Part shown: in pieces, positions 2,028 through 30,311 of the stretch | Layout: each line of letters starts with the position of its first letter | Position numbering within the stretch: position 1 is the first letter of the stretch | IMG/VR virus record: IMGVR_UViG_3300042559_001801 | Length of the DNA: 64,000 nt | Reading direction: 5' to 3' (one strand) | Source of the DNA: a virus | Lineage: Duplodnaviria > Heunggongvirae > Uroviricota > Caudoviricetes | The notes under the pieces: model-generated | Seen by the model: the letters and a program-made list of their open reading frames with translations, nothing else | The model's database searches: none | What the model was told of the DNA's origin: nothing | Translations under genes and position numbers: made by a program

Positions 2028-2195
2028 ATGGAAATCCAACCCAAAGATACTAGCCGCGGCCATTTTTATGTTAGTCTTGCAAAGAGTGCTATTCGTATTG
2101 TGGCAGGCGGCTGTTTGATTACAGGTAATTTGCTAATGGCGGGTGTTTGCTTTATAATGGCAGAAGTGCTAGGCATTGTGGAGGAACTAGTATAA
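2028..2195 (+). CDS. small hydrophobic protein (55 aa)
   Basis: ATG at 2028 follows AGGAAACACA. The product is MEIQPKDTSRGHFYVSLAKSAIRIVAGGCLITGNLLMAGVCFIMAEVLGIVEELV. Its stop TAA overlaps the ATG of the FkbM gene (TAATG at 2193-2197). It is below the track cutoff. Confidence 0.3.
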   Translation: MEIQPKDTSRGHFYVSLAKSAIRIVAGGCLITGNLLMAGVCFIMAEVLGIVEELV

Positions 2196-3007
2196 TGAAG
2201 AAAACCAACAAACCCACTTTGAAAGAAGTAACCAAAACACGCTACCACAAAAAATTCACTTACTACACCAACGATTCCATAATTGGTCGTAGTCTAAGAT
2301 TGTATGGCGAATATGGTCAGTCGGAAATTGATTTTTTACTTTCCATCATCAACAATATACAAAACAAGCCTGTGGTAGTGTATGATGTGGGTGCCAACAT
2401 TGGTGTTCATGCCACTGCATTTGCCAGCACTGGTGCTGAAGTTCATTGCTTTGAACCCAATCCGTTGAACTTTGCCATGCTGAAACAGAATACCAAAGGA
2501 CTTGCCAATGTCACTTTGCACAACCTAGCAGCTACCAATGTGGCCGGTGACATTTTGATTCAGACATTTGATCCTGAAATTGTGGGCAACTACGGCGAGA
2601 TGCTGATCAACAACGAGACCGGAGTCAGCGCACAGGCAGCACGGTTGGATGATACGGATATACCGCTGCCAAATCTGATTAAAATTGATGCCGAAGGTTC
2701 TGAACTGGGTGTTATACAGGGCTGTCTTGAAAGCATTAAAAAGAACTTGCCATTGATCTACTACGAAGCACAGGAGTCTCCGCACCTGGACAAGATCTAC
2801 CGCATGCTGACCGACATTGGCTATCACTTGTACTGGGGGTGTATTCGCAATTACAATCCTGACAATTTTAAAACCAACGCCGACAACATCTTTGGAAACA
2901 GTGCATTGTTCAGTGTGGTTGCTGTTCCTCCTGGATGGGCCGCTGTGGAAGGATTAGACCCTGTGATTGACGCCAATGACAGCTGGCGGCGCTTTTTATC
3001 TGAATGA
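2195..3007 (+). CDS. FkbM-family SAM-dependent methyltransferase
   Basis: The start was refined to ATG 2195 after a GGAGG RBS (track ORF 2147-3007). Motifs VVYDVGANIGVHATAF...CFEPNP...IKIDAEGSEL are typical of the FkbM methyltransferase domain. Confidence 0.8.
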   Translation: MKKTNKPTLKEVTKTRYHKKFTYYTNDSIIGRSLRLYGEYGQSEIDFLLSIINNIQNKPVVVYDVGANIGVHATAFASTGAEVHCFEPNPLNFAMLKQNTKGLANVTLHNLAATNVAGDILIQTFDPEIVGNYGEMLINNETGVSAQAARLDDTDIPLPNLIKIDAEGSELGVIQGCLESIKKNLPLIYYEAQESPHLDKIYRMLTDIGYHLYWGCIRNYNPDNFKTNADNIFGNSALFSVVAVPPGWAAVEGLDPVIDANDSWRRFLSE

Positions 3008-3032
3008 TCAATTTGCTCTAATTGGCCAAATA

Positions 3033-3070
3033 AGCAGTGAAAAACATTTTCACTGCTGTTTTTTTTATTA
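3033..3070 (+). terminator. rho-independent terminator after the methyltransferase gene
   Basis: A perfect 11-bp stem AGCAGTGAAAA / TTTTCACTGCT (3033-3043 / 3047-3057) with a 3-nt loop is followed by GTTTTTTTTATT. Confidence 0.7.
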
Positions 3071-3079
3071 AATATCTGT

Positions 3080-3283
3080 ATGGAAAATAAAGAAATTACC
3101 ATTGCTGACTTGAATCTGTTGAAAAACATCATAGATCTTGCCAGTACCCGCGGCGCATTTCGTGCAGCGGAAATGAAAGAAGTAGGCGAAGTTTACAACA
3201 AACTCACTGCCTTTTTAGAAGCTGTAGTAGCACAAGCCAAGGCCCAGGAAGAATCCCAGGCCAGTCAAACACAAGGAGAGTAA
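3080..3283 (+). CDS. hypothetical protein (67 aa)
   Basis: Track ORF. ATG at 3080 lies downstream of the terminator. Confidence 0.45.
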   Translation: MENKEITIADLNLLKNIIDLASTRGAFRAAEMKEVGEVYNKLTAFLEAVVAQAKAQEESQASQTQGE

Positions 3284-3285
3284 CA

Positions 3286-5034: not shown

Positions 5035-5054
5035 CTATTGTGCTATACTAGCGT

Positions 5055-5387: not shown

Positions 5388-5665
5388 TAGAGTATATTGA
5401 TGCAGAAGTGTATGCCGTTGCAGAAGTCATGCCAAGGTCACCTGTGCGGAAACAGGTATGGAATGGTGAACGGTTTGTGCCAATCCTATTGTACAGGATA
5501 AAAGGATATCCAGGCATGGCTGCAGAAAACTGGTTGCTGAAAAATTTTGGTCACGCAGGAATACATCGAGACGGAACATACTGGGACTACAGCAGCGCCG
5601 GGGACTTTATGTTGATGGATGAAAAAGTATATACATGGTATCAAATGAAATGGGGCAACCGATGA
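5369..5665 (+). CDS. hypothetical protein (98 aa)
   Basis: ATG at 5369 is a later start within track ORF 5357-5665. Its stop TGA (5663-5665) overlaps the epimerase ATG (ATGA). Confidence 0.4.
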   Translation: MGRNQVIEYIDAEVYAVAEVMPRSPVRKQVWNGERFVPILLYRIKGYPGMAAENWLLKNFGHAGIHRDGTYWDYSSAGDFMLMDEKVYTWYQMKWGNR

Positions 5666-6630
5666 AAGTATTAATAACTGGCGGACTAGGACTGATCGGA
5701 CACAATGTGGCAGCTCGTTTGCAGCAGCGTGAAGACACTGTAAGCATTGTGGATAGTCAAACCACCTACGGTATTATTCCGCGTGAAGAAGTTGACTATT
5801 TGATCGGTGAGCGTCTTAAAAAACTAGCACCGTGTAGTCACTATCATGACTACATTGAAAATGCAGATCGCATGGATGCCATTGTTGCTGCTGAAACTCC
5901 AGAAGTGATCATACACTGTGCCAGCTTTCCCAGACAAAAAGTAGTCAATGCTAACCCTGCATACGCTGCTGATGTCATGATGCGTGGCTTGATCAATCTG
6001 CTTGAGAGTGCCAAAAAGCACAAGGTCAAGAGATTTGTGTACATGTCCAGCAGCATGGTCTACGGTGATTTTACAGATCAAGTGCTGGAAGATGACGAAT
6101 GCAGACCGCAAGGGCAATATGGCATCATGAAGTTGGCAGGAGAATGGTTGGTCAAGGACTATGCTCGCAGAACCGGCATGGAGTATGTGATACTTCGGCC
6201 CAGTGCTGTGTACGGACCTCTTGATGTGGAGGATCGTGTGGTGGCCAAGTTCATGCTGACAGCCATGCGTGGCGGTGTGCTGAAAGTCAACGGTGCAGGC
6301 GAAACACTGGACTTTACCTATGTGGATGATGCTGCGGATGGTGTGGTTGCTGCTGCAACTAGAATCATGAGTGCTAACCGAACATACAACATTACCAAAT
6401 CACATTCAGTGAGCCTGTTACAAGCAGCCGAAATGATTGTGAAGATTGTGGGCAAGGGCACTATTGAATGTCGCGATAAAGATGCAGACTTTCCCAGCCG
6501 CGGAGCACTGAACATTGATCGTGCAAGAGCCATCCTGGGCTTTGATCCCCGAGTAGACGTTGAACAAGGATTCCAAAATTACTATGAGTGGCTTTCAAAT
6601 AGCGTTTACTGGTCTACAAAGACAGTATAA
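5662..6630 (+). CDS. NAD-dependent epimerase/dehydratase (extended SDR family, UDP-sugar epimerase-like)
   Basis: Start is ATG 5662 by ATGA coupling. A Rossmann motif VLITGGLGLIGHNV and the YxxxK catalytic dyad (YGIMK) are present. YMSSSMVYG is typical of sugar epimerases. Confidence 0.8.
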   Translation: MKVLITGGLGLIGHNVAARLQQREDTVSIVDSQTTYGIIPREEVDYLIGERLKKLAPCSHYHDYIENADRMDAIVAAETPEVIIHCASFPRQKVVNANPAYAADVMMRGLINLLESAKKHKVKRFVYMSSSMVYGDFTDQVLEDDECRPQGQYGIMKLAGEWLVKDYARRTGMEYVILRPSAVYGPLDVEDRVVAKFMLTAMRGGVLKVNGAGETLDFTYVDDAADGVVAAATRIMSANRTYNITKSHSVSLLQAAEMIVKIVGKGTIECRDKDADFPSRGALNIDRARAILGFDPRVDVEQGFQNYYEWLSNSVYWSTKTV

Positions 6631-7678
6631 CAATCTCAGAGAGGAGATACTGGATGCAACGGACCAGGTTCTAGCATCTGGCAATCTCATGAACGGCCAG
6701 TTCACTCAACAGTTTGAGGAATGGTTGGCTCAAAAGAATCATACCAATTATGCAGTACTGTGTCATTCAGGAACGCAGGCCTTGGAAATACTTGCTGGCT
6801 ATTACCGCCCAGGCCGCACAGAGCATAAGCTGTATCTCCAGACAACCCCGCCCACAATATTGATTCCTGCCATGACGTTCCCTGCTAGTGCAAATGCATT
6901 TGTACGAGCAGGGTGGAACATACACTTGATTGACACTGATGCATATGGCAACATGAAATTCAGTAACATTCCGCCGGATCTGGATTACCAAGCTATACTT
7001 GGCATTGGATTGTATGGTTCAGCATTGCACGACAGTCTACGCCGTATTAGGCCGTTGATAATTGAAGATGCAGCACAACACTGGTTATCTAACAATTGCC
7101 ATCGTGTGGGCGAAGCTAGTGCTATCAGTTTTGATCCCATGAAAAATCTAAACAACTACGGCAACGGTGGTGCTGTGGTCACAGACGATCATAATCTATG
7201 TGACTATGCCCGTAACTGGTGTGACAACGGCAAACGATCTGGTCATACACAAACAGGCACTAACTCACGCATGAGTGAAGTAGACTGTGCGCAAATGATG
7301 GTCAAGACTGTGTACCTGGCTCAATGGCAAGCTCGCAGAGAAAGCATTGCACGGCGTTACATAGCGGCATTTCGAGATGCACCGTTCCGTTGTCTAATTG
7401 ACGACTCAAATGTGTTCGCTCACTGTTTCCACAAGTTTGTCATTGACACCAGCAATCGAGATCAATTACAAGTTGATCTACAGTCTGCGGGCATAGAGAC
7501 TCGGGTGCATTATAAACATCCACTACACGAACTAGATGCATATCAACAGTATGCTGGGCCCAGTCTTCTCAGTGCTGCAAGTTCATTGAGTAGACGAGCG
7601 CTGAGTTTACCAATTTATCCTGAGTTAACGGATAGTGAAGTGGACTATGTTATAGATCAGGTACTAAGCTGCGTTTGA
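6584..7678 (+). CDS. DegT/DnrJ/EryC1/StrS-family PLP-dependent sugar aminotransferase
   Basis: The first ATG (6584) was used; the track start at 6560 is TTG. The N-terminus MSGFQIAFTGLQRQY...VLASGNLMNGQFTQQFEEWLA...HSGTQAL is DegT-like. The SFDPMKNL motif supplies the PLP-binding lysine. The gene overlaps the epimerase 3' end by 47 nt. Confidence 0.8.
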   Translation: MSGFQIAFTGLQRQYNNLREEILDATDQVLASGNLMNGQFTQQFEEWLAQKNHTNYAVLCHSGTQALEILAGYYRPGRTEHKLYLQTTPPTILIPAMTFPASANAFVRAGWNIHLIDTDAYGNMKFSNIPPDLDYQAILGIGLYGSALHDSLRRIRPLIIEDAAQHWLSNNCHRVGEASAISFDPMKNLNNYGNGGAVVTDDHNLCDYARNWCDNGKRSGHTQTGTNSRMSEVDCAQMMVKTVYLAQWQARRESIARRYIAAFRDAPFRCLIDDSNVFAHCFHKFVIDTSNRDQLQVDLQSAGIETRVHYKHPLHELDAYQQYAGPSLLSAASSLSRRALSLPIYPELTDSEVDYVIDQVLSCV

Positions 7679-9470
7679 CGAACGCATAGCTGGCCAGCCA
7701 CGCCCATTCATAGCTCTTTCGAAGAGCTGCAAAATCCCCGTCAACTTCATTGTAGTATTCAACAGCATCCTCTGCACCCCAACGACTCCATTCTTCGTTG
7801 ACCTGTATTCGAGTCATGTTGTCAATGTTAATCCACTGTTTGATTCGATATTCATTTTCCACGTCAGGTAAACTGGCTTTGAGTTTTAGCACTTCGCGGA
7901 ATGCAGTGCGCCAGCACAACCAGGCTGAAGTATTGTAGTATGCTATTCCGCTCAAGATGGGCACTACTTCGTGTGGCGAATCCAATGTGAAGTCTAGTCC
8001 AACACCAGGGTTGTCTAGCACCAATTGCCGGTTGTAGGCAATCATGGCCTGGTGACCATACACCAATCCATTCACAGGATTCTTTGCGTGAAAGATATAG
8101 TGCTTGGCTTGTTGCATGCGATCTGGTTGCCACTCAAAGTCAAAGTCGATATCAACTGCCAGCTTGGCAAACACAGCAAAGAACCAGGGTGTGGTGCTGG
8201 CCTGAGCCGCTGCATGATATGCTGCTGCTCGTCCATTGATGTTGTCTACTCGTACTGTGCGATTTTTCTTGGGCAACAAACTCAATCGCTTCCAATTGAC
8301 TTCTGCGTTGGGCTCACCATTGCTGATAAACACAATATCCAACAGTTGATCTTTAAGCATGCGGTGCGTCTTGTCCACATAAGGATAATCGTATAGTTGT
8401 GTTTGAATATGGCCAACTGCTGCTCTGGGCACAATCACACTGGTTGCACCTGGACTCAGCGGCACAATTGTTTTGGTTTCTGAACGCCACAATGGAACTG
8501 TGACTAAATCGCCTGTTACATAGTCGGTGTTGGTAAATGTAGCAAGAGGACCAGACCAGCTGGAGTTTTTGACTGCGTCAACATGACTGTCGTTGTGATG
8601 TTCTATCACAGGCATGGGCCTACGCGGAACAGATGTTTCAATAAAGTTTAAAGCATACCAATCTAACAATTCAATTTGATCTACTCTGTGCTGGAATGTG
8701 GGAACATGCATGTAGAATGTGTCGCCAAACTTGTTGCTGCCGCTGGCAAATACATGCAGCATAGTGGCTTGCCATACTTCGGGATGCCACGAAAAATCAA
8801 AGTTTGAATAATCACACACACTGCTGCATATCCACACATGTTCGTGTTCTGGCGGAATGCTTTTGGCCAGTCGTCGTAGTGTATCCAAATAGTTGTCAAA
8901 ATATCTGACACTGCGTGTGGTGTTTGGTATACGGCCAGCATTGCCGTCCATATGATCAATTTCATATATCGCAGTTGCTACTTTACGAGTTTTGATTTTT
9001 ATCTGATCAACATACTTTGTATCAGTTGCAGCGGGCATGCAACATTGTGGACCACCGGTTCGTTGATGCTGTGTGCCAAACTGATATATGTACGGAGGTT
9101 CAGTGTCATCTGGATGCCATGTCCAATCAAATGTTGATACATCGGCTCCGTCAGGAACAGTCCATACGCCTTCAATTTTACCAATCCTAGGTACCAGTGT
9201 TTCTGTACGATAATGTGTTTCAGTATAGCCCTGTTTGGGCACTAAATATGTACCGCTGCTCTTTTGCCATTGGCTGGGCCAGGCATGACGCTGATGCGCT
9301 TGCCATGGCACAGGTTCCCAAAGAAAATCAAAGTCTGCATAGTCCGATAAGTAATTTACAAACCAAAAGAAACGAGTACGACTCTGCTGTTGTGCTTGCT
9401 CAATGGTATCTACTGCCTGCTCATGAGCGAACAAATTGGGTTTAGATCCAGAATAAAATACATCAAACAT
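7650..9470 (-). CDS. hypothetical protein with three internal repeats of a DFDFxWxPxxWQ module (606 aa)
   Basis: The repeats are FFWFVNYLSDYADFDFLWEPVPWQAHQRH, HVWICSSVCDYSNFDFSWHPEVWQATMLH and PWFFAVFAKLAVDIDFDFEWQPDRMQQAKH. The start ATG (complement of 9468-9470) overlaps the start of the divergent gene 9469. Confidence 0.6.
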   Translation of the reverse strand: MFDVFYSGSKPNLFAHEQAVDTIEQAQQQSRTRFFWFVNYLSDYADFDFLWEPVPWQAHQRHAWPSQWQKSSGTYLVPKQGYTETHYRTETLVPRIGKIEGVWTVPDGADVSTFDWTWHPDDTEPPYIYQFGTQHQRTGGPQCCMPAATDTKYVDQIKIKTRKVATAIYEIDHMDGNAGRIPNTTRSVRYFDNYLDTLRRLAKSIPPEHEHVWICSSVCDYSNFDFSWHPEVWQATMLHVFASGSNKFGDTFYMHVPTFQHRVDQIELLDWYALNFIETSVPRRPMPVIEHHNDSHVDAVKNSSWSGPLATFTNTDYVTGDLVTVPLWRSETKTIVPLSPGATSVIVPRAAVGHIQTQLYDYPYVDKTHRMLKDQLLDIVFISNGEPNAEVNWKRLSLLPKKNRTVRVDNINGRAAAYHAAAQASTTPWFFAVFAKLAVDIDFDFEWQPDRMQQAKHYIFHAKNPVNGLVYGHQAMIAYNRQLVLDNPGVGLDFTLDSPHEVVPILSGIAYYNTSAWLCWRTAFREVLKLKASLPDVENEYRIKQWINIDNMTRIQVNEEWSRWGAEDAVEYYNEVDGDFAALRKSYEWAWLASYAFVKRSLVPDL

Positions 9471-12791: not shown

Positions 12792-12803
12792 CTGTGTCAA
12801 CAA

Positions 12804-13592: not shown

Positions 13593-13600
13593 ACCTTATT

Positions 13601-15663: not shown

Positions 15664-15761
15664 TTGTAGATAAACGGATCTCGTTTACGAAGTTCTTTGA
15701 GTTTTTTACGATAACGTATTTCTAAGCGAATACGGCTAATTAAATTTTTAATCCAGTTCAT
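15660..15761 (-). CDS. micro-ORF, 33-aa highly basic peptide
   Basis: The product MNWIKNLISRIRLEIRYRKKLKELRKRDPFIYK fills the 94-nt gap. Both ends are ATGA-coupled (15758-15761 and 15660-15663). It is below the track cutoff. Confidence 0.3.
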   Translation of the reverse strand: MNWIKNLISRIRLEIRYRKKLKELRKRDPFIYK

Positions 15762-20660: not shown

Positions 20661-21994
20661 AATGATTGATACCATTCTTTTAGGTTAGGAAATGTGTTGC
20701 TAAAGTTTTTGTTCCTGCGCACATCATATTGATCAAAGAACTGGCGAAAGTCGTTGTGTAACTTGGGCATGTCAAATGTGTCGCTGTGTGGAGTTTTAAC
20801 AATTTTCAAATAGTCAATCAATCTGCGAACATGATTCAGTTCAAATTCTTGACATGCTGATCTATTGTCAACTGATTCTTCCCACATGATCAAACAATTG
20901 CGAGCAGAGGACAACAAGGCAGGTGATAATACCAACGGAGATTGAAAACTTGGAAAGCGTAATATATTTAGTGTAAAATTAACTCGTTGTGTTCCGTAGG
21001 CTTTTTTTAATTTTATCAACTGTGTTAGGAATTCGGGCAATGTTTCTAAACACAATGCATTGATTGTACACATCACATGCACAGCACGAATATGATCGTG
21101 CTCCAACAATTCTTGAACATTGTGCATCCATAGATCATAGTCCAAGCCGTCTCTTATGTATTCAGCAGCCGAGCCTGTTGCTTCGCAACTGGTGTATATC
21201 TCTAGGTGTGGGATATCTTGAACTCGTTCAATGAACTCCTGTAGCTTGATGCGATCCATGCCCAGATTTGAATTGATTGCTAGACGAGTTTGACTGCGAC
21301 CTTGATTTGTTTTGAACCAGTCAATCAGCTTCCAGGTCTCACCGCTCATCAAGGGTTCGCCGCCGGTGATTCTCAGCTCTTGTAGTGTTCGGTGGAGGTC
21401 TGATTCCCACCAAGCAAAGAACGCTTCAACATATGGATTCGTCTCACCAAAGCGGTATAGTTGACTGCTATCGTGAGTGTGAGTAAAGTGGTTGCGCCCA
21501 TCAGACACCAAATTGGCATAGCCGCCGTGCTTTCGAATGTCATTGACCCATGTGCTACTGAAAGCAGGGTTACAATAGCTACAAGCAAATTGGCAAGTGC
21601 GGTCGAACGCAATTTCAAGTGTGCGAAGATTGACGTCTTCATTGTACGGAGTTTGGTAAGCTTCATCAAGTGCCTTTATAGGGTAAATTTTACTTTTGTA
21701 TACACGGTCGCTGACAGCATCAGTGGCCATGTCTTCGATCTTCCAGCAGTATTCACAACCGGCAGGGCGATCACCTGCCAGCATCTTCTTGCGATCATCT
21801 TTTTTCTTTGCTGTGTTATGCAGTGCAGCCGGATTGGTTTTTAGTTCTTCGAGATCAACAGCATGTGCTGGTGGATGATGACAACTGGTTGTTTGCCCGG
21901 AACCCAACCATATAGTGGCATTGTACCATTTGGCTGCACAGAAACTAGCACTTTTGGTATCCAAGACCTGGTGCTTGAAATCTAGATCATTCAT
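20657..21994 (-). CDS. radical SAM enzyme with N-terminal Cys-rich domain (subfamily B)
   Basis: Motifs are CQFACSYCNPAFSSTW, ITGGEPLM, INSNLG and an N-terminal CAAKW...SCHHPP plus CEYCW. Confidence 0.8.
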   Translation of the reverse strand: MNDLDFKHQVLDTKSASFCAAKWYNATIWLGSGQTTSCHHPPAHAVDLEELKTNPAALHNTAKKKDDRKKMLAGDRPAGCEYCWKIEDMATDAVSDRVYKSKIYPIKALDEAYQTPYNEDVNLRTLEIAFDRTCQFACSYCNPAFSSTWVNDIRKHGGYANLVSDGRNHFTHTHDSSQLYRFGETNPYVEAFFAWWESDLHRTLQELRITGGEPLMSGETWKLIDWFKTNQGRSQTRLAINSNLGMDRIKLQEFIERVQDIPHLEIYTSCEATGSAAEYIRDGLDYDLWMHNVQELLEHDHIRAVHVMCTINALCLETLPEFLTQLIKLKKAYGTQRVNFTLNILRFPSFQSPLVLSPALLSSARNCLIMWEESVDNRSACQEFELNHVRRLIDYLKIVKTPHSDTFDMPKLHNDFRQFFDQYDVRRNKNFSNTFPNLKEWYQSL

Positions 21995-23093
21995 TGAAAT
22001 GTTTGTTTATAAATTGTTTAAAGCGGGCCGGAAATTCAGATCGAACTCGAGTTCGCATTTCCGCAAGATGTTGCTGGTTGTATTTACATACATTATAGCA
22101 TTCTTTTAAGAAACTTGCAAGGTCTTGTTGACATAAATCTTTAACCACACGACTCACTTGCACCATTCTATCTTGATTGTTTGCTATTTCATCAAACCTC
22201 TCGTCAATCACATGTCCGAATGTTTGAAATCCTAGATTATGCATATCTCTATAATATCCCTGATTGGCAACCGCAATCCATGGATGTCCAATTGCAATGG
22301 GTTTCCATATTTTCTCTGTTCTAAAACTGTAGCGATAGTTTTGAACAGTTTCGGTCACCAAGCTAAAATAAGTATTGGTATACTGTGCCGGAACTAGATA
22401 CACGTCTCCCCATATGTCAGACTCGAACAAATATTTTTTTACATTTTCATCAGTCTGAGATATGTCAACATTGAACCGATCAAGTTCGTATTGCCGATCG
22501 AGCAATTTCACCGGGCCATTGGCAGGATCTAAATTGCTCCATAATGCTGTATCAAGTACGTCGGCTAACTGTTCAATCATAAATTTTCTATGCTGTCTTC
22601 CTTTTCCGTTCAAAAATAAAAATTTATATGGTCGATTGGTTGAATAGGTGCGTTTATAAGTTTTTATAGCGTTGATATTTTCATCGTAGTCTAGTATTTT
22701 AGGAAGAAAATTTTCATATACAAGATGCAGATATTGTGCCGGAACATCGCCGCCGGTTAATAATAGTATTTTTCCTTTTTTGAGTAACTCAAGTAGATCA
22801 GTATTTTCATTTCCATTGGCCAGTTTAGTACGAAATTCTGGCCGGCCGCAACGATTTATTAAAGTTGCCGATCCTTCACTTGGTTCAGCATATATAGCTT
22901 TTATAGTATTAGTTTTTACCAACTCTACAATTTTTTCAAAATTTTCTCCAAACTCAGCGTGACTTATCAAATATATAGCATTGGGAACCAAAGTGTGTTC
23001 TTGAAAAATAGAAAATTTATCGTCGGCATACACAGCAAGTTCATCGTGTATTCCACATCCTGTGTCTATTATTAATTTACGATTGCCGAGCAT
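21987..23093 (-). CDS. GT10-like glycosyltransferase, paralog 3
   Basis: It carries FRTEKIWKPIAIGHPWIAVANQG...GFQTFGHVIDERFDEI. ATG 23093 was chosen; the track start 23120 is GTG. Confidence 0.55.
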   Translation of the reverse strand: MLGNRKLIIDTGCGIHDELAVYADDKFSIFQEHTLVPNAIYLISHAEFGENFEKIVELVKTNTIKAIYAEPSEGSATLINRCGRPEFRTKLANGNENTDLLELLKKGKILLLTGGDVPAQYLHLVYENFLPKILDYDENINAIKTYKRTYSTNRPYKFLFLNGKGRQHRKFMIEQLADVLDTALWSNLDPANGPVKLLDRQYELDRFNVDISQTDENVKKYLFESDIWGDVYLVPAQYTNTYFSLVTETVQNYRYSFRTEKIWKPIAIGHPWIAVANQGYYRDMHNLGFQTFGHVIDERFDEIANNQDRMVQVSRVVKDLCQQDLASFLKECYNVCKYNQQHLAEMRTRVRSEFPARFKQFINKHFNE

Positions 23094-24501
23094 GGTACTC
23101 ACATTCCTTCCACCAGGCACTCATTTCTGGAAACACGCTCAAGAAGTCTGTACCGTGTCTGTGATCTGCTTCTGTAAAGAACCGATAGAAGTCAGCTTTA
23201 TTTCGTTGCAGGTACGCAGAGTCTAATCGTTGTCCATCACGCATCCAGGCTATGTCGCGATCAAGACGAGATATTTCATAATCTTTGAAACCGTGCAATC
23301 TGGTTGCTTCTGTTTCGATACCGTGTTGCATTGATATTTTTAATTTTTCCAACTGTGCTGCATAGCTTTCTGGCAACAATTGTAAACTTTGCCAAGCGGG
23401 TTGTCGCAGCACTGGAGTATCAAACCACACACGCTGATATGTGCTGCTGTGTTTTTTTCTAAGTTCTATAATGCCATCTAACAGCTCGGGTAAACTTGTC
23501 ACACTTAGGTTATTCATTGTCACAATAAATGTCACACTGTTGCGCGAAGGAACTTCGGTTAAGAACTGATTTACTCTGCTCCACACCAAATCAAAATTCA
23601 TGCCATGGCGCATGTACTCGGCCTGACGGCCCCATCCGTCTAGACTGATGTATTGCATAAAGTGCTCAACCACTCCTTCTTGGCACAATTGTTTGGTGTA
23701 GGCCAAATAGCGTTGCCAACTTTTTTCATCCACACTGAAGTTGCTGGTTACATTGAGATGCAGATTAGATTTGGGATTGGCCAGCACATAGTCAAACACA
23801 CGATAGGTATTCCGATCCAGCAATGGTTCGCCGCCGGTCATTCTGAAGTGCTCCAACTCGGGATACAAGGTGGGCCACCACTGCCAAAACGCTTCCACAT
23901 AGGGATTGTGCTCACGAACAGGAATGGATTTACGGTCACCTGCAAAGTGCTCAGGCGCATTGTGCGGGATGGATGTAGGATAAGCACCGTGCCGATCAGT
24001 TTCTTGTTGCCAGGTGCTGCTGAACTGTGGGCTACAATAGCTGCAAGCAAGGTTACAAGCGTTGTTGAAATTTACTTCAACATAACTGGGAGTAATGTCA
24101 GCGTCCCACTCTGCATTCACAATGGTGCCAAAGTCTTTGGCAGCCCACGGTTCTCCTGATCTGTAATGTCGGTCACTGAGTTTGCCATTGTCTTCCATTG
24201 TCCAACAGTAGCTGCATTCAGCAGGACGTGTGCCCTCTAGCATTTGTTTACGCTGTTGTTTTTTATAATCAGTGTTGTGTAATGCAGCAGGATTGCGACC
24301 AATGGCATCTACAGGAATACGATGCAAGGGCGGGTGGTAACAACTGTTGTTAAGGCCAGTGGTCAGGTGTAGACTGACTTGTTTCCATTTGGCCAGACAC
24401 ATGCTGGGACTAACAGTATCTAACTGTTGTTTGATTAGTTCGGCATCACTTAAAAACTTTGATTTAAAGTCTTCGTTGACTTCGTCACCTTTGTTTTGCA
24501 T
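23077..24501 (-). CDS. radical SAM enzyme with N-terminal Cys-rich domain (subfamily B)
   Basis: Motifs are CNLACSYCSPQFSSTW, MTGGEPLL, VTSNFS and an N-terminal CLAKW...SCYHPP plus CSYCW. Confidence 0.8.
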   Translation of the reverse strand: MQNKGDEVNEDFKSKFLSDAELIKQQLDTVSPSMCLAKWKQVSLHLTTGLNNSCYHPPLHRIPVDAIGRNPAALHNTDYKKQQRKQMLEGTRPAECSYCWTMEDNGKLSDRHYRSGEPWAAKDFGTIVNAEWDADITPSYVEVNFNNACNLACSYCSPQFSSTWQQETDRHGAYPTSIPHNAPEHFAGDRKSIPVREHNPYVEAFWQWWPTLYPELEHFRMTGGEPLLDRNTYRVFDYVLANPKSNLHLNVTSNFSVDEKSWQRYLAYTKQLCQEGVVEHFMQYISLDGWGRQAEYMRHGMNFDLVWSRVNQFLTEVPSRNSVTFIVTMNNLSVTSLPELLDGIIELRKKHSSTYQRVWFDTPVLRQPAWQSLQLLPESYAAQLEKLKISMQHGIETEATRLHGFKDYEISRLDRDIAWMRDGQRLDSAYLQRNKADFYRFFTEADHRHGTDFLSVFPEMSAWWKECEYHARQS

Positions 24502-25428
24502 TCACCAACCTTCTTGACTACGAATAACATCAATCTCTCTCACAGCGACACCGCGATTGTGCCAGTTACTGCGATAATGATGTTTAAAGAATTTACTAGC
24601 AGACTCATCAATCCATACCATTGGTAAATCCAACTGCGTAGTCAATTCGTTTGCTACTCGGCTCAACACCACTTCCGGGTCAGTGTCTTTTACTGTGTCC
24701 CACAGTTGTTCCAGCGCAGCAAAATCTTGTACTGCGCGATGGTCCCAGTTGGTCAGCATGGTCATGTATGAACCCATGCGCGATCCAGCCATACTCCAAA
24801 TGCCGTGTTCAGCATCGCGACCCACATTGTGCCATATGGTCAAGTTGTCGAGATTGCGTTGATGCACACGATTTTGAAACTCTGCCACTGTGGGTTTCTT
24901 ACCTGTGTTCAAACACATTTTGACCCCTTCGCGAAACCCGGCACGCCATGCGTGAAAAGCTGAACCATTGGGATATGTGGTTGAATAGCAATCATGCATG
25001 GCCCAGTACAACGGATCAAAGCAAAACTCCACTTCGGTTGCTGCACGACCGTCGGTGGCTTCGTGTGTTCGCATATCGTTGACAAACTTTCTAGTCCACG
25101 AACTCAGCCCGCCGTTGCCATACATCAATCCGTTTATGTGATTACGGGCACGCCAGCGGAACACTGCGGATTCCCATTGTGCATCAGGCAACTCCAGTGT
25201 CTGGTTAAAAAATTCAGGGTCTGGCATGTTGTCGCCGTCGATCAACACAAAGCGTTCGGTATCACTGGCCGCAGCAGCAGCTTTGTGTGCTGCATCACTG
25301 CCCCGAACACCATCCACTCGCTTGGCCCAAGGAACCATATTGCGAATCTTTATCCAGAATTCTTCTTTTTGTGGTTCATCATAAGTTAGATAAATGCAGT
25401 CAAGGTCTGCGATGTCAATCCGATTCAT
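24502..25428 (-). CDS. hypothetical protein (308 aa); possibly GT-A-fold glycosyltransferase-like
   Basis: The N-terminal CIYLTYDEP and a DGD motif (FVLIDGDNMPDPEFF) recall GT2-type spacing. This is weak. Confidence 0.4.
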   Translation of the reverse strand: MNRIDIADLDCIYLTYDEPQKEEFWIKIRNMVPWAKRVDGVRGSDAAHKAAAAASDTERFVLIDGDNMPDPEFFNQTLELPDAQWESAVFRWRARNHINGLMYGNGGLSSWTRKFVNDMRTHEATDGRAATEVEFCFDPLYWAMHDCYSTTYPNGSAFHAWRAGFREGVKMCLNTGKKPTVAEFQNRVHQRNLDNLTIWHNVGRDAEHGIWSMAGSRMGSYMTMLTNWDHRAVQDFAALEQLWDTVKDTDPEVVLSRVANELTTQLDLPMVWIDESASKFFKHHYRSNWHNRGVAVREIDVIRSQEGW

Positions 25429-25810
25429 GTGATTTTAAACTCCATTTTGTATGTGGTTGTTGCGGATCAACAACAATGCTGATGTTGCTGGGTACGCAAG
25501 GTGTACCGGTTGAGCCGGGTACTAGTTTGGTAACTGTTTTCTTTGGCACTATGTGTACAAGTTTTCCTTCAATGACCTGCACACGATGTGAGCTCAGTCG
25601 ATATGTTTCAGCATCTATGTCTATGTAATTACCTGGCTGGTGTTCCATGCTGTAAGATACCGGGCGACCATGTTCGTCGTAGTACAGCCTAAAAAACACA
25701 GGCGCAGGTTCTGGCACAGGTTCTGCCCAGGCCTTCCAAAAATTTTCTTCAGTTTCATTCACGGTCCGGGGCCAATCCATTGCTGTGTTTATGAGCCGCT
25801 GTGTCGACAT
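25415..25810 (-). CDS. hypothetical protein (about 131 aa)
   Basis: Track ORF 25415-25819, whose first codon is TTG. The first ATG is at 25810. No RBS is evident, so the start is uncertain. Confidence 0.35.
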   Translation of the reverse strand: MSTQRLINTAMDWPRTVNETEENFWKAWAEPVPEPAPVFFRLYYDEHGRPVSYSMEHQPGNYIDIDAETYRLSSHRVQVIEGKLVHIVPKKTVTKLVPGSTGTPCVPSNISIVVDPQQPHTKWSLKSHESD

Positions 25811-26036
25811 CTTGATCAAATCGTTTCACTTGCACAGGGTCAATACCCAGTACTTTGGCGTAGGAGCACAACAAACATTTGGGATTGCCACAATCCATGG
25901 CATGCTGTTTTGCAAACTTGTGTGGTTGACTGACATCCGATCCTTTGGATTTTGCAATCCGGGTCTGCTTCTTTACAGCGTTTTCATCTTTGAGCAGTCG
26001 TTTGCTGTGTTTGATTTTGTCTTGTTCAGTACTCAT
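25755..26036 (-). CDS. small basic Cys-containing protein (93 aa)
   Basis: ATG 26036 is ATGA-coupled to the upstream gene; the track's longer start 26123 would overlap that gene by 90 nt. The product contains HAMDCGNPKCLLCSYAK. Confidence 0.4.
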   Translation of the reverse strand: MSTEQDKIKHSKRLLKDENAVKKQTRIAKSKGSDVSQPHKFAKQHAMDCGNPKCLLCSYAKVLGIDPVQVKRFDQDVDTAAHKHSNGLAPDRE

Positions 26037-26773
26037 GTCAATCTCCAGTCTTTCATATGATAATGCACAAATCCCCACTGTGCTATGGTGTTTATACGCA
26101 CACCCGGATTGGTATTTTCCCATACCAATTCTTTGGTCCAGTCGTTAGTGTGGGTGGCAACAATGCCTGGTTTCATATGCACCATAGTGGGTCCATATCC
26201 CAGGGGCAAGGTCACTTGTTCTCTGCCTGTGATTTCTACTGCCATTGCATAAACAACATCAGTTGACGGAACTTCTTCGGGAAATTTCAACAGTGTTTTA
26301 AAGTTGTCCCAGTTTTCAAAAATACTCCTGACCAATTGAAAAAAGTCCTGTGCTGTTTTACTTACACGCCAATATGTAATAGCATTATAAACATCAGGCA
26401 ACTTGTTCACATCAAACAATTTTCTGTAACGACGATTGCTACCAGGTTGATCGTAAAAGTCTCTACATCCCTGACTGATCACAACATCACGATGTTCAAA
26501 CATGGTCCACCAGTGATTCACTGGACTGGCTGCAATCATATCTGCTTCCAGTTTGATAGTTTGCCTGTAAGGGCTGGCAGCAAACACTTGCCAGTCGTTG
26601 GCAAAGCCACCGCGATCGCCGTAGGGCAACATTTCTTTTGTCAATACAGTTATGTTGGCATCAGGATGCCATGCTCGTATGCTGTCGGCCAACTGGTTGG
26701 CGCAGGCCACATAGTCCACTGTGTCTGTGTTTACAGCTGGGATTAGGTATCCGCGCTCAGCAAGGATTTTCAA
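26033..26773 (-). CDS. putative GT-A-fold nucleotide-sugar transferase-like protein, paralog of 26757-27560
   Basis: The start is TTG with a strong AGGAG SD 6 nt upstream; no ATG occurs in the first 47 codons. The N-terminus IPAVNTDTVDYVACANQLADSIRAWHP parallels the neighbouring gene. Confidence 0.45.
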   Translation of the reverse strand: MKILAERGYLIPAVNTDTVDYVACANQLADSIRAWHPDANITVLTKEMLPYGDRGGFANDWQVFAASPYRQTIKLEADMIAASPVNHWWTMFEHRDVVISQGCRDFYDQPGSNRRYRKLFDVNKLPDVYNAITYWRVSKTAQDFFQLVRSIFENWDNFKTLLKFPEEVPSTDVVYAMAVEITGREQVTLPLGYGPTMVHMKPGIVATHTNDWTKELVWENTNPGVRINTIAQWGFVHYHMKDWRLT

Positions 26774-27560
26774 CAATTGCTCCTAGCTGTTGTTTGCCCA
26801 TGGCATGAAAGTCCTGACTTATAGTAACCCATCGTGCTTTGTTGTCAATTGTTTTAAAGTCTATTCTGTATAGATCCGGTGATAACTGTGTCAATCGGTG
26901 TTCTGGTGTAACGCTGACCAGTGAACCCGGGATTGAGTTGACTTTCAATGTGTGTCCGTTTAGAGTATTTAACGCAATGCTCAGTGCATGGTCGTTTCTG
27001 TAGGTGGCTGTGTTATTTTTGTATAGATTTCTATAGTGTGTCCAGTTGTCTCTGACCATTTGCATTGAATCAAACAACAATTCAACCGACTTGCTGCGAT
27101 TGAACATCATCACAGTGGCCCACCACATGGGCATGCGATGACTGCCAAAGTAATTTAGATCATCAAATGTTCTAACACCTGTGGCATCGGCGGCCCATCT
27201 ATGGCATAAAAATTCTTGATGGCTTTGTAGTATAGTAGCAAGTTGATCACTGGCCACAACATAATCGGCGTCCAATACCAATGTTTGATCCCATGGACTA
27301 AGACGATAAGCGTCCATACGGTTGGTGTTGTGCCACGCAACAGGTTCGCCAATGTCAGCAAAGTGTCGTACACCACTGCCTGCTGGATGGTCAACCAACA
27401 CAACACGATCAAAACTGTGGCCAACGAGTGGTTCTTTGTCTGTAACTAAACAAACAGGAATTTTTAAATGGCGGTGTATGTTGGCAGCAGACCAATTGGC
27501 CATGGCAACATAATCAATATGCTTGTTGTTAAACGCAAATATTAGTGCGCCAGTGGTCAT
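26757..27560 (-). CDS. putative GT-A-fold glycosyltransferase (DxD-like LDADY motif)
   Basis: ATG 27560 is ATGA-coupled. The N-terminus is MTTGALIFAFNNKHIDYVAMANWSAANIHRH. The LVLDADYVVASDQL motif resembles the GT8/nucleotide-diphospho-sugar transferase DxD. Confidence 0.45.
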   Translation of the reverse strand: MTTGALIFAFNNKHIDYVAMANWSAANIHRHLKIPVCLVTDKEPLVGHSFDRVVLVDHPAGSGVRHFADIGEPVAWHNTNRMDAYRLSPWDQTLVLDADYVVASDQLATILQSHQEFLCHRWAADATGVRTFDDLNYFGSHRMPMWWATVMMFNRSKSVELLFDSMQMVRDNWTHYRNLYKNNTATYRNDHALSIALNTLNGHTLKVNSIPGSLVSVTPEHRLTQLSPDLYRIDFKTIDNKARWVTISQDFHAMGKQQLGAIVENPC

Positions 27561-27865
27561 CGTTTTTTGTTTAATTCTTCGTATTCGACCAACCATGCTG
27601 TCATTTGTTCTTGCCAGCGACCCAGTGCTAGATACTGTAGTTCTGCGGGATTAATCTGCACTGGTGTTTCGTACAGGTCTAAAATTACCACTGCATCTTG
27701 TACTGGAATTGCTTGCAACAGTGTCAGCAGTTCAGGGCCAGCACACCACATGCCACCATTGTAGGCAAACAACATTTTGGCGGCATATTTTTCTTTGAGC
27801 AGACGGCGGGCGGCCACATGCTCAAAACGAGTGCGACCAGTTTCGATCAATTGTTCAGTATTCAT
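27557..27865 (-). CDS. hypothetical protein (102 aa); first gene of the minus-strand glycan-island operon
   Basis: ATG 27865 sits directly downstream of a TATAAT box. Confidence 0.5.
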   Translation of the reverse strand: MNTEQLIETGRTRFEHVAARRLLKEKYAAKMLFAYNGGMWCAGPELLTLLQAIPVQDAVVILDLYETPVQINPAELQYLALGRWQEQMTAWLVEYEELNKKR

Positions 27866-28933: not shown

Positions 28934-29008
28934 TTTTGTTTCCCTTTGTATTAGTTGATCAATTTCAACGCAATCTTCGATTGCTGGGTGATATTAACCT
29001 GTGTTATT

Positions 29009-30289: not shown

Positions 30290-30311
30290 TTGTAGCTTGC
30301 TCCGTTAAATG

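Follow-up and report, generated by a model that had tools for sequence, protein, structure and literature searches.

In T4-like phages, the hypervariable region close to the tail-fibre genes is a known hotspot for accessory genes (PMC7029224). A region similar to the one described here has been noticed in pelagimyophages as a tail-fibre 'host recognition cluster', whose GT8-rich versions were interpreted as host surface remodelling (PMC7029224), and in cyanophage S-SCSM2R as 'antibiotic synthesis genes', for which phage antibiotic synthesis was proposed (PMC12801897). The island analyzed here is a variant of this host-recognition cluster, which is known from aquatic T4-like phages. It adjoins the tail-fibre genes in a stretch of 64,000 nucleotides (the window) from an uncultivated T4-like jumbo phage with a 340-kb genome. 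Its widely conserved operon encodes five radical-SAM paralogues along with sugar-tailoring enzymes and six or seven glycosyltransferases. The 25-kb span also takes in genes with no relation to these, namely ThyX, small ORFs and a secreted DD-endopeptidase.

Sugar-tailoring enzymes

Five tailoring enzymes had been predicted for this span, and all five calls were confirmed by the matches listed here.

2195..3007, + strand: FkbM-family methyltransferase (Pfam PF05050, 3e-14; TIGR01444, 80 bits versus a cut-off of 37.7)
5635..6630, + strand: SDR of the NDP-sugar 4,6-dehydratase/epimerase type (Pfam Epimerase, 1e-44)
6560..7678, + strand: DegT/PseC-type PLP sugar aminotransferase (Pfam PF01041, 3e-55)
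11772..12791, + strand: amidinotransferase-family enzyme with GGISCCT terminus (phmmer against PDB; JGI KO name on homologues)
14149..15663, - strand: O-carbamoyltransferase of the TobZ/NovN/GdmN type (Pfam Carbam_trans_N and Carbam_trans_C)

The best NCBIfam matches of the SDR and the aminotransferase, dTDP-glucose 4,6-dehydratase (114 bits, cut-off 365) and PseC (139 bits), remained under the respective cut-offs. The carbamoyltransferase matched NovN (4e-51), GdmN (2e-45) and TobZ (5e-39) in the PDB, as well as phrog_1601 (4e-90). No Pfam or NCBIfam model matched the amidinotransferase-like protein, while phmmer against the PDB retrieved AGAT (7e-14), HsvA (1e-12), StrB1 (5e-11) and SxtG (3e-7). 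Its candidate catalytic residues H185, D187 and C324 were unchanged across 20 viral homologues. The protein with the GGISCCT terminus, its His-x-Asp and Cys retained, is a genuine relative of amidinotransferases. As the amidinotransferase and carbamoyltransferase calls survive both profile and structure-based checks, the two enzymes do not belong to unrelated families. The carbamoyltransferase is a member of the core module (present in 48 of 83 loci), and the FkbM gene is accessory, with only two related loci carrying one.

Glycosyltransferases

The predicted glycosyltransferases, three GT10-like and two or three GT-A-like, were also recovered, together with a protein carrying a degenerate GT-A-like domain.

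9469..10602, + strand: GT-B, GT10-like paralogue a (paralogue alignment; fold deduced from the paralogue b model)
10586..11779, + strand: GT-B, GT10-like paralogue b (modelled structure)
21987..23120, - strand: GT-B, GT10-like paralogue c, between rSAM5 and rSAM4 (paralogue alignment; synteny)
24502..25428, - strand: GT-A-fold glycosyltransferase-like protein (invariant D64-G-D66; NGLxYGNGG motif)
26033..26776, - strand: GT8-like (glycogenin-like) GT-A (profile against PDB glycogenin, 6.5e-6, DxD region covered)
26757..27596, - strand: GT8-like GT-A, paralogue of the preceding protein (hhalign probability 99.7%; D109 and D111 invariant)
7650..9470, - strand: 606-aa protein with four FDFxWxP repeats (motif positions)

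The GT10-like paralogues share an invariant E-T...T-E-K..K block, and the structural model predicts a GT-B fold with GT10 fucosyltransferases among its top matches. The GT-A-like protein at 24502..25428 is a core member of the module and belongs to a very large family. Residues 376-531 of the 606-aa protein, its C-terminal domain, are homologous to it (hhalign probability 99.2%), with a degenerate DxD motif.

Radical-SAM paralogues

The five radical-SAM genes between 16851 and 24501 all match the NCBIfam model NF033640, N_Twi_rSAM (279-401 bits, cut-off 170 bits), and a sixth paralogue lies outside the island.

16851..18149, - strand: N_Twi_rSAM paralogue 1 (NF033640, 279 bits)
18130..19344, - strand: N_Twi_rSAM paralogue 2 (346 bits)
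19341..20675, - strand: N_Twi_rSAM paralogue 3 (401 bits)
20657..21994, - strand: N_Twi_rSAM paralogue 4 (303 bits)
23077..24501, - strand: N_Twi_rSAM paralogue 5 (322 bits)
59359..60942, + strand: sixth N_Twi_rSAM paralogue, with an N-terminal extension of 150 aa (292 bits)

These enzymes had been described as BtrN-like. The twitch segment does resemble the C-terminal twitch domain of BtrN in alignments, and the core resembles viperin. However, the four-Cys auxiliary (twitch) domain of the phage enzymes is N-terminal to the radical-SAM core, the reverse of the order in BtrN (in rSAM3, Pfam SPASM at residues 41-104, 2e-13, is followed by Radical_SAM at residues 150-309). They are thus BtrN-like in the cluster domain only; they are not orthologues of BtrN and form part of the separate N_Twi_rSAM family. 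The island paralogues are only 20-32% identical among themselves, and each has its own orthologue in other phage loci at 43-94% identity; they are ancient paralogues within an uncharacterised radical-SAM family. Secondary NCBIfam matches included viperin and MoaA and, weakly, maturases of the PapB, WgkB, StsB and YhhB types. The RRE/PqqD peptide-recognition domain was not detected with Pfam or NCBIfam. The viperin and BtrN alignments, the viperin and MoaA matches and the missing PqqD/RRE domain point to sugar or nucleotide substrates.

In bacteria, N_Twi_rSAM arrays were found beside GT4-like glycosyltransferases in 11 of 69 loci and beside Wzt-type O-antigen ABC-transporter ATPases in 8 loci (PDB Wzm-Wzt, 5e-60), and SDR epimerases and carbamoyltransferases also adjoin such arrays. 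Some polysaccharide loci of bacteria contain N_Twi_rSAM arrays. The immediate neighbours are mostly other radical-SAM genes, TPR proteins and Fe/2OG dioxygenases, and none of the phage glycosyltransferase families was present in the bacterial loci. Both of these points count against a glycan module.

Conservation and boundaries of the island

The remaining features comprise accessory genes, two conserved proteins and the adjacent fibre genes.

12804..13592, - strand: secreted DD-endopeptidase/carboxypeptidase, PbpG-like (Pfam Peptidase_S11, 1e-36; NF008668, 160 bits, under cut-off), with a signal-like sequence at the N terminus; accessory, 4 loci
13601..14149, - strand: 182-aa protein, accessory, 6 loci, with no match in family searches
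15758..16861, - strand: unk367, conserved 367-aa protein, core member (46 of 83 loci)
27557..27865, - strand: unk102b, conserved 102-aa protein, first gene of the enzyme operon (36-39 loci)
27941..30935, - strand: trio of fibre-like structural genes adjoining the operon on its upstream side (PHROG and Pfam matches; composition; conserved adjacency)

Upstream of the carbamoyltransferase gene there is also a 33-aa basic ORF. The unk367 gene always lies between rSAM1 and the carbamoyltransferase; none of its 437 representative clusters was annotated, and its profile had no match in the PDB.

Among at least 584 confirmed viral radical-SAM matches, we examined 80 IMG/VR loci. Most of them share the order fibre genes, unk102b, GT8 (two copies), GT-A, rSAM5, (GT-B), rSAM4-3-2-1, unk367, carbamoyltransferase, with GT-B genes interspersed among the rSAM genes; of the partners of the GT-A protein, rSAM5 is the most widely conserved. 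Because this order repeats in dozens of independent viral contigs, the clustering is not due to chance. The cultured Ralstonia phage RsoM2USA shares only part of it, a sub-core of two GT8 genes, GT-A and rSAM5 (35% identical) following a 2540-aa protein. Vibrio phages K566/K567 are also among the carriers. By these comparisons the core is a common conserved cassette, not special to this phage.

The fibre-like trio consists of a 206-aa protein, a 426-aa protein whose C-terminal domain is intramolecular-chaperone-like, and a 330-aa protein. The last contains 29% Ser+Thr (homologues 21-33%). The small fibres have 0-1 Cys, and the 4815-aa fibre protein has 7. The claim that this large fibre is rich in N-x-S/T triplets did not hold (63 observed versus 54.5 +/- 6.8 expected from composition, z=1.2). 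A terminator-like hairpin (27918-27899) and a sigma-70-like promoter (TTTACT-17-TATAAT, 27901-27873) precede the 102-aa gene and separate the operon from the fibre genes, and the enzyme operon lacks the CATAAATA motif that precedes structural genes. Nothing therefore points to joint expression of the operon and the late structural genes, which would count against the fibres as acceptors.

Candidate products and acceptors

The product of the island is most likely a heavily decorated glycan, and the prediction of a biosynthesis and tailoring island, well past a simple Gtr-like LPS-modification cassette, is upheld. Overall, the original observation was partly confirmed and its interpretation partly supported; the proposed aminoglycoside or aminocyclitol flavour, a BtrN identity of the radical-SAM enzymes and the N-x-S/T argument for the fibre were not supported. 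A diffusible aminoglycoside- or aminocyclitol-like molecule, acting as a phage-encoded antibiotic or signal, would fit the StrB1-like amidinotransferase, TobZ-like carbamoyltransferase, DegT aminotransferase and BtrN-like twitch domain, and runs parallel to the S-SCSM2R proposal (PMC12801897). However, O-antigen and capsule pathways use all of these families just as typically, and the module is bound to fibre genes. To our knowledge, the known pseudo-oligosaccharide antibiotics need fewer than six or seven glycosyltransferases. Searches of the window with Pfam, NCBIfam and PHROGs found no sugar-phosphate cyclase or other cyclitol-forming gene (2-deoxy-scyllo-inosose synthase, inositol-phosphate synthase, EEVS), resistance gene or exporter. 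We thus see no sign of aminoglycoside production and consider it very unlikely. Hypermodification of phage DNA (glycosylated, carbamoylated or aminated bases) against restriction is, if anything, slightly less probable still. Known pathways of this type include radical-SAM, PLP-dependent and carbamoyl-transfer enzymes, and ThyX lies in the span, but it is an ordinary thymidylate synthase rather than a hydroxymethylase, and searches of the window turned up neither a dNMP hydroxymethylase nor any enzyme of the DNA kinase or TET/JBP type. The GT-B family with its GT10-type E...TEK block, the GT8-like enzymes and the sugar 4,6-dehydratase/aminotransferase pair indicate glycans, and bacterial homologues reside in polysaccharide loci. 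It is improbable, though less so, that the five radical-SAM enzymes are maturases that cross-link, epimerise or otherwise modify a virion protein or small phage peptide by radical chemistry, with the glycosyltransferases acting separately or on the same protein. Most characterised SPASM/twitch enzymes act on peptides, the weak maturase matches and many non-glycan bacterial neighbours agree, and small conserved ORFs, the 102-aa first gene and the 33-aa ORF, lie in the operon. Against this, an RRE/PqqD domain is absent, the fibres are nearly Cys-free, the top solved-structure matches (viperin and BtrN) are small-molecule enzymes, and the radical-SAM genes are recurrently linked to carbamoyltransferase and glycosyltransferases in phages and bacteria.

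The target is probably either a virion fibre protein, which we tentatively prefer, or a host surface polysaccharide, which is somewhat less likely. In the latter case, O-antigen, capsule or LPS core would be remodelled during infection with host undecaprenyl-linked intermediates and export machinery, blocking superinfection or keeping progeny from adsorbing to debris. The Wzt/GT4-type context of bacterial N_Twi_rSAM genes, the sigma-70-like promoter, the envelope-acting neighbours (the secreted DD-endopeptidase and an SPFH protein) and the position of the S-SCSM2R amidinotransferase next to KdsA and KdsB speak for remodelling, as does the published reading of pelagimyophage clusters (PMC7029224). 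On the other hand, the window encodes no membrane protein of any kind and no initiating phosphoglycosyl transferase, flippase, polymerase or ligase, the linkage of the core to fibre genes is tight and widespread, and about 15 kb with five radical-SAM enzymes would be an unusually large cost for superinfection exclusion. The fibre acceptor is hinted at by the Ser+Thr content of the adjacent fibre and by the island proteins, none of which has a transmembrane segment. Envelope targets are also compatible with a lack of membrane proteins, since soluble glycosyltransferases use undecaprenyl-linked intermediates as well. Ser/Thr richness is general in tail fibres, which weakens the argument for a fibre acceptor, and, as the region is a known hotspot, the position beside the fibre genes may have more to do with where accessory genes tend to insert than with what they do.

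Proposed function

Our tentative preference is for a soluble (cytoplasmic) phage module that assembles a glycan and tailors it by radical chemistry, with a virion surface protein as the most likely acceptor. The data establish the enzyme families and folds, the conserved catalytic residues, the gene order shared by many phages and the polysaccharide setting of bacterial homologues; from these we infer the order of steps, the radical chemistry and the acceptor. The SDR, as a 4,6-dehydratase, and the DegT aminotransferase would convert a host NDP-hexose to an NDP-4-amino-4,6-dideoxy sugar. An oligosaccharide would be built by three GT-B/GT10-like enzymes and three of the GT-A type, two of which are GT8-like, together with the seventh, degenerate GT-A-like domain. 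Each of the five N-terminal-twitch radical-SAM paralogues would catalyze its own radical reaction on a sugar residue. If BtrN, DesII and viperin are a guide, this would be an epimerisation, a dehydration or the conversion of a hydroxyl into a ketone, creating keto or amino positions for the other tailoring enzymes. Carbamoyl, amidino/guanidino and methyl decorations would be added by the carbamoyltransferase, the amidinotransferase and the FkbM methyltransferase, respectively. The leading acceptor candidates are the Ser/Thr-rich fibre proteins whose genes lie just upstream, and their modification would yield glycan-coated fibres.

A conserved glycan-enzyme module in a T4-like jumbo phage

The window is part of the genome of a T4-like jumbo myovirus. 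At 45-62 kb, searches against PHROGs recognised the baseplate proteins gp6 and gp5, the late sigma factor gp55 and an SbcD-like gp47, and a look-up of exact proteins retrieved a 339.8-kb JGI metagenome contig that carries the island, as well as several further metagenome contigs with the island in identical gene order. The best cultured matches to the gp6 homologue share only about 34% identity with it and come from Agrobacterium phage Atu_ph07, Sinorhizobium phage Phosso, the Erwinia, Serratia and Escherichia phages of the 121Q type and the Rak2-like jumbo phages. Megablast of a 10-kb core against 50,697 GenBank phages gave no match and no close cultured relative. Two genes apparently do not belong to the glycan module: one for an SPFH/Band-7 protein whose N-terminus bears a hydrophobic stretch, at 453-1292 (+), and one for a ThyX thymidylate synthase inside or beside the span, at 4342-5034 (+).

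The genes of the island and the adjoining fibre region are the following:

2195-3007, FkbM methyltransferase
5635-6630, SDR protein
6560-7678, DegT aminotransferase
7650-9470 (-), 606-aa repeat protein
9469-10602, 10586-11779 and 21987-23120, three GT10-like (GT-B) paralogues
11772-12791, amidinotransferase-family protein ending in GGISCCT
14149-15663, carbamoyltransferase
15758-16861 (-), unk367, a conserved 367-aa protein
16851-24501 (-), rSAM1 to rSAM5, five radical-SAM paralogues
24502-25428, GT-A protein of 308 aa
26033-26776 and 26757-27596, two GT8-like proteins
27557-27865 (-), unk102b, a short protein
27941-30935 (-), fibre genes
31086-45533 (-), 4815-aa protein

In order to assess conservation, we scanned IMG/VR with the radical-SAM alignment, which gave at least 584 confirmed stretches, and mapped the island proteins onto 80 IMG/VR loci and three copies of the source island (83 loci). 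A strikingly constant gene order recurs in most of the loci. The 426-aa and 330-aa fibre genes are followed by unk102b, two GT8-like genes, sometimes a further small gene (unk134) and the GT-A gene, and then by rSAM5, in some loci a GT-B gene, rSAM4, rSAM3, rSAM2, rSAM1, unk367 and the carbamoyltransferase gene. The amidinotransferase gene, two more GT-B genes and the gene for the 606-aa protein often come next, on the opposite strand. The GT-A gene was present in 67/83 loci, the two GT8-like genes in 56-57, the carbamoyltransferase gene in 48 and unk367 in 46. The true figures may be higher, since the flanks extended no further than 10 kb. The radical-SAM genes usually number five or six per locus, with a mode of five.

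Among cultured phages, only the Ralstonia jumbo phage RsoM2USA carries a sub-core, consisting of two GT8-like genes, GT-A, rSAM5 and a second GT-A, which also lies downstream of a giant protein (2540 aa). Vibrio phages K566/K567 have four copies of the radical-SAM gene, and the amidinotransferase recurs only in cyanophage S-SCSM2R, plus one single-virus genome. The core of the island is a widespread, conserved phage module and not a peculiarity of this phage. The original prediction named a common conserved cassette of known function in related phages as evidence against it; of this, the commonness and conservation hold for the core.

In seven relatives of unk367, with lengths of 712-775 aa, the unk367 domain forms the C-terminal part, and one of them has a weak, partial second unk367-like repeat in its N-terminal part. 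These fusions were considered as a 'Rosetta stone' and set aside, as apart from this repeat their N-terminal parts of about 400 aa matched neither an NCBIfam family nor an island protein.

Radical-SAM enzymes with an N-terminal twitch domain

All five radical-SAM paralogues matched the NCBIfam model NF033640, 'twitch domain-containing radical SAM protein' (N_Twi_rSAM), with 279-401 bits at a cut-off of 170. Pfam matches place a twitch/SPASM-like segment at residues 10-105, before a Radical_SAM core at about 120-310. Four N-terminal cysteines (C41, C60, C101, C104) and those of the CxxxCxxC motif (C155, C159, C162) are invariant among the paralogues. Positions 7-78 of the orthologue profile, i.e., the first 75 or so with the four-cysteine domain, aligned to the twitch-containing segment of the butirosin enzyme BtrN (residues 184-258 of 4m7t_A and 164-239 of 4m7s_A; E-value 2e-5, 26-27 bits), and the radical-SAM core of the profile aligned to viperin (1.8e-5). 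In BtrN, the twitch domain follows the core, whereas in N_Twi_rSAM it precedes it. With the architecture permuted and the BtrN match confined to the twitch segment, the proposed "BtrN-like" character is valid for the auxiliary-cluster domain only, and not for the whole enzyme, which belongs to a separate family. No characterised radical-SAM enzyme with an N-terminal twitch domain was found in a literature search.

The paralogues are 20-32% identical to one another, and each has an orthologue in other loci at 43-94% identity, which argues for an ancient array without recent amplification. Judged from sequence affinities, to BtrN, viperin and MoaA, we favour sugars or nucleotide-sugars rather than peptides as the probable substrates, as a suggestion and not as a proof. 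The absence of an RRE/PqqD domain in Pfam and NCBIfam searches and the presence of GT-B genes in between the radical-SAM genes point in the same direction.

A sixth N_Twi_rSAM gene lies far from the island, at 59359-60942 (+), between the gp55 and gp47 genes (292 bits). Its product has a 150-aa N-terminal extension, and of the proteins examined it alone showed a clearly hydrophobic segment, which lies in this extension (KD 1.88, residues 97-102).

Glycosyltransferases

The three GT10-like paralogues share 19-26% identity. They had no Pfam match at E<=10, Glyco_transf_10 included, and no PDB match with profiles of 3 or 36 sequences. An AlphaFold model of the protein encoded at 10586-11779, built with homologues, reached a pLDDT of 85 and a pTM of 0.86. 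In alignments of 36 and 30 sequences of the family, R195, E281-T282, T295-E296-K297 and K300 are invariant, and this R...E-T...T-E-K..K block resembles the GT10 nucleotide-sugar-binding motif E-x(n)-[YF]xTEK.

The GT-A-like assignments stand as well. A profile of the first GT8-like protein matched glycogenin-1 (GT8) in the PDB at 6.5e-6 over residues 3-101, covering the DxD region. The second is homologous to it (hhalign 99.7%) and alone reaches glycogenin only at an E-value of 0.3; Pfam Glyco_transf_8 does not fire on these proteins. The 308-aa protein has the GT-A Rossmann-like fold and the DxD motif of GT2-like GT-A glycosyltransferases, its model matches PBCV-1 A64R, STIV A197 and mimivirus R699/R655, and its family has at least 8000 metagenome members. 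Its top-scoring homologues, one of which carries a precomputed Pfam Glycos_transf_2 match, are 526-552 aa long, about twice the length of the query, and so probably contain the domain twice in tandem. In the 606-aa repeat protein, the C-terminal third is a degenerate copy of the same GT-A domain, with the DxD replaced. This protein, which also has four FDFxWxP[DEV] motifs (residues 47, 114, 224 and 443), had no family match in the databases searched.

Tailoring enzymes

Profile searches upheld the assignment of the FkbM methyltransferase, the SDR protein and the DegT aminotransferase. The best NCBIfam types of the latter two were NDP-hexose 4,6-dehydratase and PseC/4-aminotransferase, respectively, both under the equivalog cut-off. 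The predicted carbamoyltransferase was confirmed by both Pfam domains, Carbam_trans_N (Kae1-like, 118 bits at a cut-off of 24) and Carbam_trans_C (YrdC-like, 158 bits at a cut-off of 27), and by solved relatives in the PDB (NovN 4e-51, GdmN 2e-45, TobZ 5e-39). It is a member of the family only and not a NodU orthologue, scoring 130 bits against an equivalog cut-off of 1000.

The protein ending in GGISCCT likewise belongs to the amidinotransferase family, as predicted. In phmmer searches of the PDB, it matched AGAT (7e-14), HsvA (1.4e-12), StrB1 (5.4e-11) and SxtG (2.7e-7) over N-terminal, middle and C-terminal stretches. Its C324 aligned to the catalytic cysteine of AGAT, H185-G-D187 to the H-I-D of the AGAT sequence MHIDATF, and the N-terminal SYxxWxPLEEVIVGRA block was also aligned. 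H185, D187 and C324 are invariant across 20 viral homologues with identities down to 28%. No Pfam or NCBIfam amidinotransferase model fires on the protein even at E<=10, so that it represents a divergent branch of the family; its sole family match was phrog_25854, to which PHROGs assigns no function.

Two further genes were also seen in this part of the island. One, at the 3' end of the enzyme operon (12804-13592, -), is confined to the closest relatives (4 loci); its product is a PbpG-like D-Ala-D-Ala endopeptidase/carboxypeptidase that starts with a signal-peptide-like sequence. A very basic 33-aa ORF, MNWIKNLISRIRLEIRYRKKLKELRKRDPFIYK, lies between unk367 and the carbamoyltransferase gene at 15660-15761 (-), its stop codon overlapping the carbamoyltransferase start, and was called as a gene on three contigs by metagenome pipelines.

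Bacterial relatives

GTDB species genomes were scanned with the radical-SAM orthologue alignment, yielding 376 relatives. Six MAG contigs have the whole phage module, fibre genes included, in bins assigned to Legionellales, Verrucomicrobia TMED56, Betaproteobacteria TMED41, Rickettsiales MED606 and Haliscomenobacter sp. EUL_031 (183 and 148 kb). With such a gene content they look like mis-binned jumbo-phage contigs and were rejected as host copies of the island. Genuine bacterial loci were found in Bacteriovoracaceae, other Bdellovibrionota, Elusimicrobia, Bacteroidota and Polyangiaceae, where N_Twi_rSAM genes again form multi-copy arrays (146 copies in 69 loci). Five loci, in MAGs of Bacteriovoracaceae, Halobacteriovoraceae, Elusimicrobia and an unclassified bacterium, have 3-8 tandem copies, so array formation by this family is not limited to phages.

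According to Pfam, the bacterial genes are most often directly flanked by additional radical-SAM genes and by genes for TPR proteins and Fe/2OG dioxygenases. A polysaccharide context emerged only after clustering all ORFs of the 20-kb bacterial loci. Among the commonest families other than the radical-SAM enzymes was a GT4-like glycosyltransferase (11/69 loci), with plasmid homologues annotated as glycosyltransferase. A Wzt-type polysaccharide ABC-transporter ATPase was found in 8/69 (PDB matches to Wzm-Wzt at 5e-60, then TagH and RfbE). A carbamoyltransferase occurs in at least seven loci, PhyH-like dioxygenases and SDR epimerases are also recurrent, and three weak unk367-like proteins were detected. 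The GT families of the phage (GT10-like, GT8-like and GTA308-like, i.e., that of the 308-aa protein) and the amidinotransferase are absent from the 69 loci. These ABC-transporter polysaccharide loci resemble the island in their N_Twi_rSAM arrays, which in some are joined by a carbamoyltransferase, an SDR or a GT4-like glycosyltransferase and rarely by an unk367-like protein, but they have the export machinery that the phage island lacks.

Comparison with known systems

The island is a form of the known tail-fibre host-recognition cluster, distinguished by its fixed array of five orthologous N_Twi_rSAM genes. In pelagimyophages and cyanomyophages, this cluster is a large and variable stretch in which tail-fibre genes are accompanied by 'radical SAM cassettes' and by genes for GT8 enzymes and for LPS-type, deoxy- and amino-sugars (Zaragoza-Solas et al., 2020, PMC7029224). 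As there, the present phage is a T4-like myovirus with glycosyltransferase, LPS-type sugar and radical-SAM genes beside the tail-fibre genes. It differs in being a 340-kb jumbo phage whose baseplate protein is nearest to those of Atu_ph07, 121Q and Rak2-like phages, and in having, in place of variable cargo, five orthologous N-twitch paralogues with unk367 and the carbamoyltransferase in conserved order.

In Synechococcus phage S-SCSM2R, the genes for an aminotransferase, an amidinotransferase and a radical-SAM protein have been termed 'antibiotic synthesis genes' by analogy with aminoglycosides (PMC12801897). This cultured T4-like phage shares with the island an aminotransferase of the DegT/AHBA-synthase family, a radical-SAM protein and an amidinotransferase at 30% identity. 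Unlike in the island, its amidinotransferase gene adjoins KdsA, KdsB, a glycosyltransferase and 2OG oxygenases, and it has neither the five-gene radical-SAM array nor GT10-like genes nor unk367.

Other viruses are similar in having glycosyltransferase genes beside structural genes and encoding sugar-modifying enzymes. Mycobacteriophages reportedly glycosylate capsid and tail, and chloroviruses and mimiviruses encode their own glycan machineries. For the present phage group, virion glycosylation is a prediction, and radical-SAM enzymes, amidinotransferases and carbamoyltransferases are not known to take part in the mycobacteriophage, chlorovirus or mimivirus systems.

Fibre genes and operon boundary

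The fibre genes lie directly upstream of the enzyme operon, and this adjacency is conserved over large evolutionary distances. The fibre protein adjoining the operon contains 29% Ser+Thr, and its homologues 21-33%. The 426-aa fibre protein, 29009-30289 (-), has a C-terminal segment resembling autoproteolytic intramolecular chaperones (Peptidase_G2/IMC, E-value 6.6e-4; phrog_6427, 1e-13), a domain typical of self-cleaving tail fibres and spikes. The 4815-aa ORF encodes a giant virion structural protein (phrog_10938, 982 bits; FG-GAP repeat match) with only 7 cysteines, and its 2540-aa counterpart in RsoM2USA is encoded upstream of the sub-core. The giant protein had been described as very rich in N-x-S/T triplets; its 63 sites compare with 54.5 +/- 6.8 in composition-preserving shuffles, i.e., there is no enrichment.

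Of the terminator-like hairpins in the region, the best, AAAGGGCC-TTAG-GGCCCTTT with a T-rich tail at 27918-27899 (-), lies right after the 330-aa fibre gene. A sigma-70-like promoter, TTTACT-17-TATAAT at 27901-27873 (-), precedes the operon and overlaps the hairpin. The 64-kb window contains no copy of TATAAATA, the T4 late consensus. The octamer CATAAATA occurs only twice in the 64 kb, about 20 nt upstream of the 426-aa fibre gene (30312-30319, -) and of gp6 (48966-48973, -), which is no more than the chance count; by its placement, it could be the late-promoter core of the phage.

Proposed pathway and alternative explanations

From the gene content, the SDR and DegT enzymes would convert a host NDP-hexose to an NDP-4-amino-4,6-dideoxyhexose, and the six glycosyltransferases would build an oligosaccharide, to be decorated by the carbamoyl-, amidino- and methyltransferases. 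By analogy, each of rSAM1 to rSAM5 might carry out one radical step on a sugar, i.e., dehydrogenation to a ketone, epimerisation or dehydration. No island protein has a transmembrane segment, which argues for cytoplasmic chemistry. The acceptor would be a virion fibre protein, as supported by the widely conserved fibre-gene adjacency, the Ser+Thr content of the neighbouring fibre and its homologues, and the viral precedents for virion glycosylation. This acceptor is the weakest link of the proposed mechanism.

Modification of a host surface polysaccharide instead is somewhat unlikely in our judgement, with several observations in its favour. Accessory genes are known to accumulate in the fibre region of T4-like phages (PMC7029224), the hairpin and the sigma-70-like promoter split the operon from the fibre genes, the bacterial N_Twi_rSAM relatives occur in loci for exported polysaccharides, and a secreted DD-endopeptidase and the SPFH protein are encoded nearby. 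An aminoglycoside or aminocyclitol product is far less probable. The family sharing behind that idea is real (StrB1-like, TobZ-like, DegT and the BtrN-like twitch), and TobZ (tobramycin) and StrB1 (streptomycin) are significant sequence relatives of the phage enzymes. However, the carbamoyltransferase is closer to the non-aminoglycoside enzymes NovN and GdmN than to TobZ, and AGAT and HsvA outscore StrB1, so the closest solved relatives of both enzymes are not from aminoglycoside pathways. Searches of the window ORFs with Pfam, NCBIfam and PHROGs gave no cyclitol-forming enzyme (2-deoxy-scyllo-inosose synthase, myo-inositol-1-phosphate synthase or EEVS) and no resistance or export gene, and the island has no membrane proteins. 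DNA hypermodification, suggested solely by a structural match to T4 BGT, is marginally less probable still. The original prediction was thus largely right in what it described, apart from the class of the radical-SAM enzymes and the N-x-S/T enrichment, and its elaborate glycan island stands without the aminocyclitol flavour.

With a virion fibre as the acceptor, we tentatively propose, as a somewhat unlikely reading, that N_Twi_rSAM is a large, mostly viral family of glycan-editing radical enzymes, and that the five-paralogue array, with unk367 and the carbamoyltransferase, may serially oxidise or epimerise a tail-fibre oligosaccharide. If true, this would be the first virus-encoded glycan-tailoring pathway dependent on radical-SAM enzymes, and would show for the first time that T4-like phages infecting Gram-negative hosts have a glycan coat on their fibres.

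NF033640, a whole curated radical-SAM family, is abundant in uncultivated aquatic phages, where its genes are firmly tied, through a conserved operon, to those for glycosyltransferases, a carbamoyltransferase and another protein family, unk367. Together, the phage operon and the bacterial polysaccharide context provide a concrete substrate hypothesis, sugars rather than peptides, for which RsoM2USA, K566/K567 and S-SCSM2R offer culturable entry points. If the product decorates virions, it would change the view of host recognition and of immune or grazer evasion in abundant aquatic myoviruses. An effect on host envelopes, if that is what the product has, would amount to an unusually elaborate superinfection-exclusion system.
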